Of a stretch of DNA of 13,009 nucleotides, positions 1,163 through 10,804 are shown piece after piece (within the stretch, counting starts at the first letter, position 1; every line of letters starts with the position of its first letter). The position numbers and the translations under genes were made by a program. The notes beneath the pieces were generated by a model. It was given only the letters and a program-made list of their open reading frames with translations. It ran no database searches and was not told the DNA's origin. This stretch comes from a virus (Duplodnaviria > Heunggongvirae > Uroviricota > Caudoviricetes), in IMG/VR virus record IMGVR_UViG_2619619134_000011. One strand, 5' to 3'.

Positions 1163-2824
1163 TTACACCCCGCTAAATTCTTCCAGTTTCTGGCGGTGGC
1201 TGTCGCTTATATCAAAAGCAAAATCCTCATGCTCTGCCTGGAATGTACCAAACGCCATCAGCGCCGCCACGCTCGGGTCTATCTTGTTCGGTGATTTTTT
1301 CTTGTTCGGCTTGATATTGGCGTTCGCGTCACTCTGCATCACGACGTTACTCATCGACCAGGACAACACCGGATCGCCACGATGCACAATCACCCTGCGG
1401 TTAACAAAAACTTCGAACGATTTCGCCGCCGGACTGAATCTGAGGTAGGTTTGCGGGAACGGCTCCACCTCAAAACCTGCCCCCTGTAATTGCGTTCTGA
1501 GATGCGTGGCGTTCCACGTATCAAAGCCCACCAGCCTGATATGAAATTTCTCCGCGTCCTGCATGATGTCATCTCTGATCCGGTCGTAATCAATGCAGTC
1601 GCCAGGCGTTGTGCGTATCCAGCCCGCTTTAGCCCACTGACGATAGACAGCGCGGTTTTTATTGGCGGGGTTCTGTAGCTGGAACTCCGGCAGATAATGA
1701 CGGGAAATCAGCATAATGGTTTTACCGACCGGAAAGGCATAGCATACGCTGGAAATATCGCTGGTTGATGATAAATCCAGCCCCGCGTAACACTCCTGGC
1801 CGTGTAAATCTTCCTCCGTGAACGTTCCGGCACACTCAGCCCATGCGCCGTTACCCATCCACGGGGTAGCCCCCTGGCACCAGATATTAAATCGCTTTGT
1901 CATCATCTCCACCCACTGCGACGGTATTCCCCGCGCTTTCTGGATGGTTGAGGCCAGTTTTTCACGATCGACGGAAACATCGATATTGGGATTCGCCTTT
2001 ATCCACATCGCCGGATCGTCAACCTCGCTTTCATCATCCAGCTCGTAAATCAGCACGAACATGGATTCGTTCACCTCTTCACCATCCAGTATCTGGCAGC
2101 AATAGTCGTAGTGTTGTTTACAGGCTGAAACAACGTTGCTCCCCGATGTGGTGATGGCAAATAACAGCCCCTCCGGACGCGCCCCCATTCCCAGTTCAAG
2201 CGCGGAATAAACCCCGTTGTCAGGGTGCAGGTGATATTCATCCACAATGGCAAGACTCGGGTTTGTGCCCTCGATGGTTGCCGCTTTTGCTGCCAGCGGC
2301 TTTAACAGGCTGTTGCTTTTCGGGTGCATCACCTTGTGGGCCTGAATATTCACCCGCCTGCGTAACGGTCGGGATAAAAGGCACATCTGACGCGCATCAT
2401 CAAAAACGATCCGCGCCTGGTCACGGCTCACCGCTGCGGTGTAAATATCCTGCTGCCCGTTCTCCATAATCAGAAACCAGTTAGCCAGAATCGCGGCGGT
2501 CGTGGATTTCGCATTTTTGCGTGGCACTTCGATAAAGGCGCTCGTGTATTTGCGCCGTCCGGTGGCCTTAACCTTAAAGCCGAGGATGCACGCAAAGGCG
2601 AACTGCTGCCACGGCTCCAGCTCAATGGGTCTGCCACGCATCGGCCCTTTTACGTGCGGACACACCCTGGAAAAGGCAATAAACCGCTCCACAACCTCAC
2701 GATCGAACGTGTAAAGGGGGCTTTCAAGGTCCGAAAAGTACCGTTTAACGGCCTGTTTCAGCCGTTTACAGGCCGGAATTTTGCCCGTTTTTACGTCTTC
2801 TGCGTACTTATTCCAGGCGGTCAA
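1163..2824 (-). CDS. terL: Terminase large subunit (HK97-like family)
   Basis: 553-aa ORF overlapping the terS stop by 17 nt. N-terminal P-loop-like segment (PRKNAKST) and the length and layout of phage large terminases, directly downstream of HNH and TerS. Family assignment is by recognition, not by search. Confidence 0.85.
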   Translation of the reverse strand: MTAWNKYAEDVKTGKIPACKRLKQAVKRYFSDLESPLYTFDREVVERFIAFSRVCPHVKGPMRGRPIELEPWQQFAFACILGFKVKATGRRKYTSAFIEVPRKNAKSTTAAILANWFLIMENGQQDIYTAAVSRDQARIVFDDARQMCLLSRPLRRRVNIQAHKVMHPKSNSLLKPLAAKAATIEGTNPSLAIVDEYHLHPDNGVYSALELGMGARPEGLLFAITTSGSNVVSACKQHYDYCCQILDGEEVNESMFVLIYELDDESEVDDPAMWIKANPNIDVSVDREKLASTIQKARGIPSQWVEMMTKRFNIWCQGATPWMGNGAWAECAGTFTEEDLHGQECYAGLDLSSTSDISSVCYAFPVGKTIMLISRHYLPEFQLQNPANKNRAVYRQWAKAGWIRTTPGDCIDYDRIRDDIMQDAEKFHIRLVGFDTWNATHLRTQLQGAGFEVEPFPQTYLRFSPAAKSFEVFVNRRVIVHRGDPVLSWSMSNVVMQSDANANIKPNKKKSPNKIDPSVAALMAFGTFQAEHEDFAFDISDSHRQKLEEFSGV

Positions 2825-3164
2825 GCTCGTCCTCTTCTTCTGTTTCCGGTGGATTTTTACGGCGGCTTATCGGGTCAAAACCGAGCAAGGAGGCCATTTT
2901 TATCATCACTCTTTCAGCGTCGGATTTTGCGCTTAATGCGGGGTTTCTGCTCTCGCCGCCCTGACTGTTAACAATGCTGAACCCGCGCGCCGCAAGGTCT
3001 GCAACGGCTTTCCGGTAAATGGAGTAGTTGACACAATACAGTTCCAGATTACTCCAGTCGGCGGGGGTAAGGTCTCCCCGTTCCGCAAGCTGCCGCGATT
3101 TTCCCCGCCACTGCTTCACGGCGATATCATCCAGGTAGGCGGGGGCTTTCGGTGGTCTTGCCAT
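2808..3164 (-). CDS. terS: Terminase small subunit (P27-like family)
   Basis: 118-aa ORF directly upstream of and overlapping terL. Size, acidic C-terminus and position fit a small terminase. No clear Shine-Dalgarno; the upstream region is AT-rich. Confidence 0.7.
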   Translation of the reverse strand: MARPPKAPAYLDDIAVKQWRGKSRQLAERGDLTPADWSNLELYCVNYSIYRKAVADLAARGFSIVNSQGGESRNPALSAKSDAERVMIKMASLLGFDPISRRKNPPETEEEDELDRLE

Positions 3165-7792: not shown

Positions 7793-8107
7793 TTATCTGT
7801 CCTGGTAATTTCGCCATATTTCATCGCTTACACCATCTATACCCATTTCAGCATAAGTGCGATCTACTGCCTTTCTCAGGTCTCCGAAGTTATCCGGCGG
7901 CTCCGGTGGCTTCTGTGCCTTCCTGGAACATTCCAGCCGTCGCATCGTAACCTGATGCCGTTCCTTGTCTGTCTCCACCAGCAGCATGACTTCACCCCAT
8001 CGCGCCGACGCCCTCCGGTAAAAGCCTTTCGCCTCGAGTTCTTCCGCTATGCGGTCATGTACCATCGCCACCCCCTCAGAACGGAATACCGTCACCGTAA
8101 GGGTCAT
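7793..8107 (-). CDS. Small regulatory protein, PerC-like (tentative)
   Basis: Track ORF 7793-8185 trimmed to the ATG at 8107 (104 aa) so that it overlaps the SSB stop only modestly. The segment AEELEAKGFYRRASARWGEVM ... DKERHQV.MRR matches my recollection of the PerC/Pch family. Not verified by search. Confidence 0.4.
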   Translation of the reverse strand: MTLTVTVFRSEGVAMVHDRIAEELEAKGFYRRASARWGEVMLLVETDKERHQVTMRRLECSRKAQKPPEPPDNFGDLRKAVDRTYAEMGIDGVSDEIWRNYQDR

Positions 8108-8486
8108 CGCCTCCCGCTGGTGGCTGATTACCCTGTGTGCCTGTGGTTTTGCGTCTGTTCCCGCCAGGACGTGCCGCACGGGCACTGATTACGCTGTCTG
8201 CAATAACCTGATAACCCTGCCGCGTTTCCCCGTTCTGTCCCGTCCACTGGCTGACCTGCATCGTGCCGGATACGCTGGCAACGTCGCCTTTTTGATGTTT
8301 AGCCAGGAAGTCGGCCTGCTTACCAAATGCGATGACCGATAGCCATAACGTCGCCTGCCCATCCTGCGCCTGACTACATGGCAACGATACCGCCATACGC
8401 GCCAGCGTCATCGGTGTGCCCTTACTGGTCTGTTTTACCTGCGGGTCGTCCACCAGCCGCCCGTAAGCCGCTATCTGTGCTGTCAT
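8076..8486 (-). CDS. ssb: Single-stranded DNA-binding protein
   Basis: 136 aa, alignable by eye to E. coli SSB (WLSVIAFGKQADFLAKHQKGDVASVSGTMQVSQWTGQNGETRQGY versus [44 protein letters not shown]), with a Gly/Pro-rich linker and the acidic C-terminal tip DDPYGDGIPF (compare DDDIPF). Confidence 0.8.
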   Translation of the reverse strand: MTAQIAAYGRLVDDPQVKQTSKGTPMTLARMAVSLPCSQAQDGQATLWLSVIAFGKQADFLAKHQKGDVASVSGTMQVSQWTGQNGETRQGYQVIADSVISARAARPGGNRRKTTGTQGNQPPAGGDDPYGDGIPF

Positions 8487-8761
8487 GATTCCACCTCTCC
8501 GGTTTTAACGTTGATGGTTGTTACCTGTTCCGCTTCGGCAATCTCCCGTTCTGTCAGCGTGGCAAAGTTTGCCGCCGCCGTGGTCATGAATGCGCTTATC
8601 AGTTCGGGATGTGCTTTCGCGTATCCTTCCCCCGCGTGGCGGTCTATCGTTCTGATTGCCACCTTTAAAGCGTGCTCTGTCATGTCTAACGCGCGATATT
8701 TCGGTTCTGTTCTGTCTCTGCGTTTTTTGAGTGATTTATTAAATTTCCCTGAAGCGTGCAT
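8483..8761 (-). CDS. Hypothetical protein (92 aa) between origin and ssb
   Basis: ORF with a GAGGGGG Shine-Dalgarno about 10 nt upstream of the ATG at 8761; its stop overlaps the ssb start. No recognised motif. Confidence 0.5.
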   Translation of the reverse strand: MHASGKFNKSLKKRRDRTEPKYRALDMTEHALKVAIRTIDRHAGEGYAKAHPELISAFMTTAAANFATLTEREIAEAEQVTTINVKTGEVES

Positions 8762-8810
8762 ATTTATTTTTACCCCCTCGTTTAAAAAGTTTTGAGTTGT
8801 GCCTCCCCTT

Positions 8811-9036
8811 GTCTACCTTATCTACCTTACTGGCTCTCATGCCAGTAATGGCGCGGCTTTCAGCGGGGTAGAGTGCTTTTATCCACTATCTACCCCGTAT
8901 CTACCTCCCTGTCTGATTCAGGTAAAATCAGGTAGAGAGGGTAGATAGTAGGTAGACAGTGAAAAAAGGCTGTCTACCTAAGTTAATATACTGAATTAAA
9001 TGTATTTTTCTTTACTCAGGTAGACAGGGTAGACAG
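8811..9036. repeat. Iteron array: putative replication origin
   Basis: Eleven copies of the hexamer GGTAGA/TCTACC in both orientations (TCTACC at 8812, 8821, 8889, 8900, 8973; GGTAGA at 8867, 8931, 8940, 8951, 9019, 9028), several extended to GGTAGACAG, flanking an AT-rich segment (8981-9017). Immediately downstream of the primase/helicase gene. Confidence 0.7.
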
Positions 9037-9049
9037 CCATTGCAAAAAA

Positions 9050-10804
9050 TTATAAAAACGCGTCGCAATCGTCTGTTGTTATTGCGTTAGTCTGCGTTAC
9101 TCCCTTAACTTTCCGCGTAATATATTCATGTCCGTAAACTTTCGCGGCTGGCTTCATAGCCTTGCCAAAGTCATTTACGTTTAGCGGTTTGCTCCTGCCT
9201 GCGTACGCCATAAACGCCAGATAGACGCGGTAAAGGCTGTTTCTGGTCGTGTACTTCACTGAATCGCCACCGCCGCCCATCATCAGGCCGCGTGCTTCCT
9301 CCAGAAAATTCAGGAACTGGCAAAACTCAATAACCGGATCCGTCTGTTGCTTTATTGCCAGTGCTTCATCACCGTCACGCTGTTCAATGAGTAAAGCCCG
9401 TGCCTTTTCAGGGTCGGCAAAGTTCGCCAGCAAGCGGCGGATAATCACAGGGATTTCAGCCGCGATCTTTTCCGGTAGCTCCCTGTCTTTTTCTGCCTCG
9501 CTTACGATGTTATCGAACCGGAATATCACCCGACGACGTGCCACACCTCCGGCCCGTTCGGTGAATATCATCGGATTGTTATTGGTTGCCAGCACCACCG
9601 CCCTGATTACCGCCGTAAAACGCTTTTCATATTTCGGGTTAATTTCCACGGGGTCGCCGCCCGTGATTTTCTTGATGCCCGTTCCTTCGCCTGTATATTT
9701 CGGCTGGTCTGCCAGGACGATAAGACGACTCCCGACAACCTGCGCACGCCCACCAGCATCATCAAGCGATGTCATTTCAGCGCTTACCGTGTTCTGTTTC
9801 CCTGCCAGAAGGCTGGCTATGTGTGTGAATGTACTTTTACCGCTCCCGCCGTCTCCGGTGGCCTCAATAAACATCTGCCAGTCGTACCGGTTCGCCATAA
9901 TCATGTACAGCGCGGCACATATACGCATCATCTTGCGCGGGTCTTTTCCGGCTGCGTGCTCAAGCCATTTATGAAAGTTTGGCGCGTTATCGCGGATGTT
10001 CTCCCCTGGTGCTGGTGGCGTGTACTCAATGCCGTTGTGCGTGGTGATCCAGTTCTCCGGCGTGTGCGGGGAAAATTCCCCCGTTTTCAGGTCAAGCGCA
10101 CCATTGGCGAACGGCAGCAAATCGCCGGACGGCTCGCCCATTGGTTCGGCAATAACTTTTAACGCTTCCACGGCGTTATTGATTACGCGCTTGCTGAAAG
10201 TGGCCCTGTGCTCTGAATAGATCGCCACCATTTCGCGGCTAAGTTCCATTGTGCTGACCGGACACCATACCCCGCCGCGCCATACGTGAACGATTTCACT
10301 TTCAGGATGTACGCAAACGCCATCAAAGCGATCGGCAAGCAGCTGCGCGCGCTCACTGTCCGCCATCTGCGAAAGTTGCGCCTTTTGCTTTACCGGAAGC
10401 TCAATGACCAGACCATCAGAAAGATTCTGGCGCTCACGGGCCAGATATTCGCGCCAGTTCTCCACCTTCTGACCGTGCATACCCTCAGGATAAAAATTTG
10501 CATCCTGTACGCCTGCCGCCGCCAGCTTCTGGCCAATCGCCTTTATCATTACTGGCGCAAGATATCCGGCCCTGAATATGCGCACGGATTTTCTGCCTTC
10601 CGGCACAATTTGCAGCTTATCCAGTTCTGATAACTGCTGCTCCCCAAGCCACACAGGAGGCTCATTATCTCCGGCCATACGCGCATCATGTTCCTGCCAT
10701 TGTTTCGCGTGTGCCCAGGCATCACTACCCGCAAAAATAATGACTTCTGTTCCTTTGTGTTTTATGCCGCGTGACTGCTGTTTTACGTTCGGTGCCAGTT
10801 TCAT
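9050..10804 (-). CDS. DNA primase/helicase (P4 alpha-like, D5/SF3 NTPase)
   Basis: 584 aa with Walker A GDGGSGKST and a following hydrophobic-D Walker B-like segment (RLIVLAD). Its start overlaps the upstream ORF stop as ATGA. Typical satellite replication gene next to its origin. Confidence 0.8.
   Translation of the reverse strand: MKLAPNVKQQSRGIKHKGTEVIIFAGSDAWAHAKQWQEHDARMAGDNEPPVWLGEQQLSELDKLQIVPEGRKSVRIFRAGYLAPVMIKAIGQKLAAAGVQDANFYPEGMHGQKVENWREYLARERQNLSDGLVIELPVKQKAQLSQMADSERAQLLADRFDGVCVHPESEIVHVWRGGVWCPVSTMELSREMVAIYSEHRATFSKRVINNAVEALKVIAEPMGEPSGDLLPFANGALDLKTGEFSPHTPENWITTHNGIEYTPPAPGENIRDNAPNFHKWLEHAAGKDPRKMMRICAALYMIMANRYDWQMFIEATGDGGSGKSTFTHIASLLAGKQNTVSAEMTSLDDAGGRAQVVGSRLIVLADQPKYTGEGTGIKKITGGDPVEINPKYEKRFTAVIRAVVLATNNNPMIFTERAGGVARRRVIFRFDNIVSEAEKDRELPEKIAAEIPVIIRRLLANFADPEKARALLIEQRDGDEALAIKQQTDPVIEFCQFLNFLEEARGLMMGGGGDSVKYTTRNSLYRVYLAFMAYAGRSKPLNVNDFGKAMKPAAKVYGHEYITRKVKGVTQTNAITTDDCDAFL

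Follow-up and report, generated by a model that had tools for sequence, protein, structure and literature searches.

SaPI origins consist of six to twelve iterons of 5-6 nt located directly past the rep ORF and placed in opposite orientations around a roughly central AT-rich region (Qiao et al. 2022, PMC9371898), and the protein that binds these iterons is a self-loading helicase, which contacts them through its winged-helix C-terminal domain (PMC9371898). In Gram-negative PICIs, the origin was likewise assigned to the region directly 3' of the initiator gene, with an iteron/AT-rich layout (Fillol-Salom et al. 2018, ISME J, PMC6092414). In that study, pri-ori, pri-Δori and Δpri-ori of the island EcCICFT073 were cloned into the temperature-sensitive plasmid pKO3-Blue, and colonies at 44 °C were present with pri-ori, absent with Δpri and significantly fewer with Δori (PMC6092414).

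The initiator α of P4 possesses a DnaG-type primase domain in its N-terminal part (PMC2777425). P4 needs two cis sites, ori and crr, which are 4.5-5 kb apart, crr being made of two 120-bp direct repeats. Iterons of plasmids such as pSC101, R6K, RK2 and P1 are about 17-22 bp long and mostly arranged as tandem direct repeats, and their RepA-type initiators recruit the host DnaA and DnaB.

Here we analyzed a stretch of 13,009 nucleotides of viral DNA (hereafter the window) carrying an array of GGTAGA repeats directly behind the gene of an SF3 helicase-initiator, Pri-Rep. With a probability of roughly 0.9, we consider this array to be the vegetative replication origin of a PICI, here of the capsid-forming type. 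Site, layout and function have already been published for a near-identical copy, and in this sense the origin is already known.

The GGTAGA array is confined to the gap behind pri-rep

The earlier note on this DNA described eleven GGTAGA/TCTACC hexamers in both orientations around an AT-rich stretch, within about 280 bp directly 3' of the initiator gene and without any coding explanation. Recounting on both strands gave the same number, and all 11 hexamers of the window fall within 8812-9033. Six start on the plus strand (8867, 8931, 8940, 8951, 9019 and 9028) and five on the minus strand (8812, 8821, 8889, 8900 and 8973). The gap that holds them measures 288 bp (8762-9049), beginning at the base directly after the Pri-Rep stop codon and ending at the start of a 92-aa ORF; it is indeed non-coding and lies between two minus-strand ORFs. 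The first iteron is found 14-17 nt past the Pri-Rep stop. Both the position directly 3' of pri-rep and the eleven exact hexamers agree with the PICI origin class, whose iterons are of 5-6 nt and present in about 6-12 copies.

We then compared this count with what composition would give. A first-order Markov model predicts 0.07 GGTAGA copies in a 288-bp stretch, corresponding to a probability of about 4e-21 for 11 or more, and whole-window shuffles contained 3.0 copies on average and 9 at most, vs the 11 real ones. In the rest of the window, every other hexamer reached at most 5 copies in any 288-bp stretch. Once all copies are oriented alike, the iteron consensus extends to RGGTAGAYAG, which has 10 matches in the window with at most one mismatch, all of them in the array region; the form GGTAGACAG is present in 4 copies in the array.

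Organization of the origin region

Starting from the Pri-Rep stop, the array is composed of a gene-proximal iteron pair, an AT-rich stretch, the right half of an inner iteron cluster, a dyad centre, the left half of the inner cluster, a 21-bp block without iterons and a gene-distal iteron pair. The gene-proximal pair, AGGTAGACAG GGGTAGACAG, is on the plus strand at 9018-9036, 14-32 nt past the Pri-Rep stop and with 9-bp spacing. The gene-distal pair, AGGTAGACAA and AGGTAGATAA, lies on the minus strand at 8809-8827 with the same 9-bp spacing and mirrors the proximal one, its region being 89% complementary to 9018-9035. Between them, the right half of the inner cluster (8930-8979) contains forward copies at 8931, 8940 and 8951 and a reverse copy at 8973, the copies at 8951 and 8973 forming GGTAGACAG-N10-CTGTCTACC, while the left half (8867-8906) contains a forward copy at 8867 and reverse copies at 8889 and 8900. 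The dyad centre (8907-8929) has inverted repeats, the axis at 8922/8923 within TGATTCAGGTAAAATCA, and a degenerate copy with one mismatch, GGTAAA, at 8921. Around this axis, the region forms an imperfect dyad of 226 bp in which 60 of 117 positions are complementary, vs about 25% expected.

The AT-rich stretch (8979-9018, 40 bp, 17.5-20% GC) is the candidate unwinding element. The 40-mer starting at 8975, which overlaps it, has the weakest nearest-neighbor duplex energy among the 12,969 40-mers of the window, and it is flanked by oppositely oriented iterons, the reverse copy at 8973 on one side and the forward copies at 9019 and 9028 on the other. The AT-rich stretch was described as one that "could be the melting site" in a figure legend of the published work (Fillol-Salom et al. 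2018, PMC6092414). Iterons of opposite orientation are thus found on both sides of the AT-rich region, as in the PICI origin class, with an uneven split of 2 on the Pri-Rep gene side and 9 on the far side.

The 21-bp block CAGTAATGGCGCGGCTTTCAG (8843-8863) is nearly invariant in 10 of 10 E. coli and Shigella relatives. A second copy of this conserved block (CAGTAATGG) was absent from every origin region examined; being single-copy in each of them, the block does not represent another family of repeats. Its 12-nt core, GCGCCATTACTG, is found again past the initiator gene of Aeromonas tecta (L013 3606-3617), where the iterons are different. Another invariant stretch of the same alignment is located at 8780-8793.

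We also looked at other signals in this region. At 8879-8887, between two inverted iterons, TTATCCACT agrees at 8 of 9 positions with the DnaA box consensus. This sequence is present in the window and in the CFT073, Nissle and Shigella copies and is absent from the relatives of 73-82% identity; it was therefore rejected as a conserved feature. Folding of 8806-9040 as single-stranded DNA gave a z-score of -6.6, which reflects only the inverted iterons and was not read as a structured RNA or DNA element. No match to Rfam was obtained in the whole window.

The gap is nearly identical to the published origin of EcCICFT073

The gap past pri-rep of EcCICFT073 (NC_004431.1 1383996-1384283; L009 13997-14284) is identical to that of the window at 279 of 288 positions (96.9%). 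All 11 hexamers are kept, as none of the 9 point differences falls in a hexamer, and the 2 Pri-Rep proteins are 99% identical. The reading proposed in the earlier note, an iteron origin bound by the neighboring initiator as in satellites and plasmids, is therefore supported by near-identity to a published PICI ori.

By mapping the published primers onto CFT073 and onto the window, we located the inserts that had been cloned. The pri-ori insert (2.1 kb) begins within the DUF4222 gene, 44 nt before the start codon of pri-rep, and takes in about the first 25 nt of the gene that follows. Primer rep-3c, with which the pri-Δori insert terminates, reaches 4 nt beyond the stop of pri, and rep-2c sits at the start of the next gene; from these positions, the Δori construct deletes the whole gap, equivalent to 8762-9045 of the window. 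The knockout primer pri-4c matches 9002-9061 of the window with one mismatch. Therefore, the cloning experiment that had been suggested for initiator-dependent replication exists in the literature for a copy that is 97% identical, and its outcome is that ori contributes to Pri-Rep-dependent maintenance. As deletion of ori lowered colony numbers without abolishing them, some residual maintenance independent of ori is possible.

The 2 islands share more than the origin allele and its position after the stop: both have DUF4222 upstream and a small ORF, SSB and PerC downstream. They differ in the remaining modules, as the CFT073 island has a major capsid gene, a head decoration gene and other small genes, whereas the module of the window is a complete one with HK97-type head, HNH and terminase genes, as is typical of capsid-forming PICIs.

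Pri-Rep is an SF3 helicase with a P4-like origin-binding domain

Pri-Rep (584 aa, minus strand, 9050-10804) was identified as an SF3 helicase-initiator by Pfam, NCBIfam and PDB matches. Pfam and NCBIfam assign to it a D5_N domain, the helicase core DUF5906/TIGR01613 and a C-terminal Pox_D5 winged-helix domain at residues 488-576. Its helicase core matches SaPI5 PriRep (7OLA, E=3.7e-15), and for residues 488-576 the structural match is the origin-binding domain of P4 α (1KA8, E=1.1e-6). The array is thus adjacent to a helicase with a C-terminal winged-helix domain, another feature of PICI origins. Judging from these matches, the C-terminal domain of Pri-Rep is homologous to the P4 α origin-binding domain, with 32% identity between the two.

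Over its alignable part Pri-Rep is 41% identical to P4 α, the alignment being confined to α residues 324-756, that is, to its helicase and origin-binding regions; the 323 N-terminal residues of α are without counterpart in the 584-aa Pri-Rep. No primase catalytic domain was detectable in Pri-Rep with Pfam or NCBIfam, and residues 1-140/150 (approximately 10385-10804) gave no family match in either collection. An AlphaFold model of residues 1-150 from the single sequence (pLDDT 53) showed an alternating strand/helix pattern and was too weak to classify. The gene had been labeled "primase/helicase" from its sequence; our results back the helicase half of this name and not the primase half. Because the first 140-150 residues match no family and their model is too poor, "primase" is used here as a family label and not as a demonstrated domain.

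The iterons are conserved in E. coli and Shigella islands

With the 451 bases around the gap as query, matches were obtained at 599 places in 561 of the 5,426 complete E. coli genomes (about 10%), always in the chromosome and never on plasmids, and the origin region is present in up to 4 copies per genome. No match was found when 8700-9150 was searched by blastn against a phage collection.

We aligned the gap of ten E. coli and Shigella islands, with identity to the window down to 73%. Each relative has 9-11 hexamer copies at matching positions, while spacers and the bases adjacent to the core vary. Within 8806-9040, invariant columns account for 53 of 66 hexamer positions vs 37 of 169 other positions, a comparison that ignores the relatedness of the sequences. 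The gene-proximal pair is invariant at 12 of 12 hexamer columns in the 10 relatives, and the left half of the inner cluster at 17 of 18. Absence of the repeats from otherwise conserved relatives had been named as an outcome that would speak against an origin; on the contrary, the repeats are kept even in relatives diverged down to 73% identity.

The alignment also separates 2 groups by the bases 3' of the GGTAGA core. These are CAG/TAG in the window, CFT073, Nissle, L002 and L003, and GGG/TGG/AGG in L004-L007. Pri-Rep residues 544-547 in the winged-helix domain (9122-9133 of the window) divide in the same way, being NDFG/NEFG in the CAG/TAG group and AEFS/ADFS in the GGG/TGG/AGG group. This pairing may point to a specificity determinant or may simply reflect shared ancestry. 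Along the same lines, the origin could carry more information than the GGTAGA core, in the form of replication-specificity groups, of a second recognition element at 8843-8863, or both, although we find this rather doubtful.

Among the relatives, the Pri-Rep/ori module adjoins at least four different packaging modules. Pri-Rep is 93-99% identical to that of the window in 6 of the 7 relatives compared and 81% identical in L003. The neighboring packaging genes encode an HK97-type head with HNH and TerS/TerL in the window, a protease-capsid fusion in Rb-3, TerS with a small capsid gene in CV261, and a major capsid protein, a head decoration protein and TerS in Nissle and JNEC-KY179, CFT073 being similar to the last two without an annotated TerS. 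Because the same Pri-Rep/ori module is joined to different packaging modules, these gene orders indicate modular exchange between classical and capsid-forming PICIs.

Iteron and initiator vary together in distant relatives

Pri-Rep homologs were collected by scanning one genome per species (42-52% identity), and the 300-400 bp after the stop codon were checked for repeated words. In three distant relatives, a single short word was strongly enriched, on both strands, directly past the initiator stop: TGAACA in Morganella (L011; 10 copies, with ATGAACA in 11 copies in 420 nt), GGTGAA in Pectobacterium (L012; 9 copies, often within GGTGAACA) and CAGTGCC in Aeromonas (L013; 5 copies). The Morganella layout nearly superimposes on that of the window, with an iteron pair, a 40-nt AT-rich stretch, an inner cluster and a second pair about 220 nt out. 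Counted from the stop, the first pair lies at 17 and 26 in the window and at 27 and 36 in Morganella, the AT-rich 40-mer begins at 32 and 41, and the last pair is found at 224 and 233 and at 218 and 226, respectively.

The C-terminal domains of the Morganella and Pectobacterium initiators share 48-51% identity with the P4 α domain, and the iterons beside them are the P4-like GGTGAACA or TGAACA; the annotated type 1 repeat of P4, TGTTCACC, is the reverse complement of GGTGAACA. Since P4-like domains go with P4-like iterons in these 2 relatives, whereas the window combines a domain of 32% identity with GGTAGA, the iteron sequence seems to track the C-terminal domain of the initiator across about four lineages. 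Such tracking is what would be expected if this domain reads the iteron, and it supports binding by that domain.

Other relatives from Serratia, Erwinia and Pantoea (L014-L035) have the length of α (about 800 aa) and are about 44% identical to Pri-Rep from residue 141 onward. In the 400 bp after the gene of these Pantoea, Erwinia and Serratia loci there was no comparable enrichment, non-homopolymer hexamers reaching 3-5 copies at most. GTGAAC is present in 4 copies in the Serratia loci L015 and L019. By analogy with P4, the origins of L014-L035 may lie elsewhere.

The window is a capsid-forming island

All genes around the array are on the minus strand. Past the gap, the first is the 92-aa ORF (8483-8761), which has a good ribosome-binding site and no family match; after it come an SSB gene (8076-8486) and a PerC-family gene (7793-8185). 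In the 7 relatives examined, a small ORF is always annotated at the position of the 92-aa ORF, and the SSB gene comes next in 5 of them. Further downstream lie a full HK97-type head module (capsid, protease, portal and two connector proteins), an HNH protein, TerS and TerL, with the terminase genes at 1163-3164. Upstream of Pri-Rep we found AlpA, several small ORFs and a DUF4222 protein. The array is in the middle of the island, away from both the terminase genes and the integrase end.

By its gene content, which agrees with published descriptions of such islands, the window is a capsid-forming PICI. PICIs measure about 10-16 kb and combine an integrase, an AlpA-type regulator and packaging or interference genes in a unidirectional order; the island has this gene set, with the integrase located beyond the window and present beside the same module in relatives. 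Islands of this make-up are listed as "PICI? HNH; terL" in the supplementary table of Fillol-Salom et al. 2018 (PMC6092414). Some part of the window matches 5,425 of 5,426 complete E. coli genomes, and island-wide matches of other strains begin at position 322; for this reason, the first 320 bases or so are probably chromosomal flank beyond the end of the island. No tRNA gene was found in the window.

Discussion

The array has the same layout as SaPI origins, and the helicase core of the adjacent protein resembles SaPI5 PriRep; it differs from them in iteron sequence and in host, and its AT-rich region is off-centre, with 2 iterons on one side vs 9 on the other. With P4, the window shares a homologous initiator, including the origin-binding domain (1KA8, E=1.1e-6), and both systems have short iterons in both orientations, with the P4 crr located just 3' of the α gene. 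On the other hand, whereas P4 depends on ori and crr, the window has one dyad-symmetric site, a single cluster duplicated in inverted rather than direct form. The type 1 iteron TGTTCACC has 0 copies in the window, and an N-terminal DnaG-type primase domain has no equivalent in an alignment covering α 324-756 only. P4 type 2 repeats were also considered as relatives of the array and were set aside as unrelated in sequence. In common with plasmid iteron origins, the array places repeated initiator sites beside an AT-rich unwinding element; it differs from them in that its repeats are of 6-10 bp and in both orientations, instead of tandem repeats of 17-22 bp, and that its initiator is itself an SF3 helicase and not a RepA-type protein.

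The best-supported mechanism is one modeled by analogy on SaPI Reps and P4 α. Upon induction of the island by a helper phage, Pri-Rep would be made from the gene just upstream of the array, and its C-terminal winged-helix domain would recognize the RGGTAGAYAG iterons of the 226-bp imperfect dyad. Binding on both sides of the AT-rich stretch would then lead to melting at 8979-9018, and the SF3 helicase part of Pri-Rep could load itself as hexamers, as shown for SaPI Reps, possibly as a double hexamer. DNA synthesis would presumably be carried out by host enzymes, possibly together with the island SSB.

The P4 record suggests another way of reading the array. There, crr carries ten type 1 repeats in both orientations and lies 46 nt past the α stop, the same relative position as the array, while ori sits 2.1 kb upstream of α. 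Considering also the 41% identity of Pri-Rep to α residues 324-756, the array might be an auxiliary, crr-like cis element bound by Pri-Rep, with initiation taking place at another group of iterons in a different part of the island. We judge this quite improbable, as no GGTAGA is present beyond 8812-9033 in the 13 kb of the window, which include nearly all of the island except the integrase end, and as the published 2.1-kb pri-ori fragment alone sufficed for plasmid maintenance (PMC6092414). Moreover, the least stable duplex of the window sits at the array, and the two 120-bp direct repeats of crr are absent from it.

Could the array serve mainly in transcriptional control? In such a case, the repeats would be operators for PerC, AlpA or the 92-aa protein and would govern the SSB, PerC and packaging genes. 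The array is indeed directly upstream of co-directional genes, the first of which has its good ribosome-binding site, and conservation extends beyond the iterons to the block at 8843-8863 and to the stretch at 8780-8793. However, scanning of 8400-9400 revealed neither a terminator nor, on the gene strand, a sigma-70-like promoter; one weak promoter-like match was found on the plus strand, no more than in shuffled sequences. Eleven copies forming a dyad around an AT-rich stretch are organized like an origin and not like an operator, the iteron changes in distant relatives together with the DNA-binding domain of the initiator, and the plasmid assay reveals a replication function for the 97%-identical copy (PMC6092414). 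We thus give very little credit to transcriptional control as the main role; a secondary regulatory role, for example through an effect of Pri-Rep binding on read-through, may exist beside replication. Finally, a chance cluster, or leftover recombination or packaging sites (integrase arm sites, cos, pac), has next to no probability: integrases and terminases do use short repeated sites, but the hexamers are conserved at the level of single alignment columns among relatives and the array lies mid-island, away from the integrase end as well as the terminase genes (1163-3164), while chance is excluded by this conservation together with the P of about 4e-21.

As a replication origin, the array anchors the annotation of the window as a capsid-forming PICI with a replication module of the EcCICFT073 type. 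It also provides a rule for finding origins, which is to look for the most repeated hexamer in the 300 bp past the gene of a P4-family helicase. If the block at 8843-8863 were a second recognition element, it could be a priming site or a site for a host factor and, if the specificity groups were true, several PICIs could share one cell.
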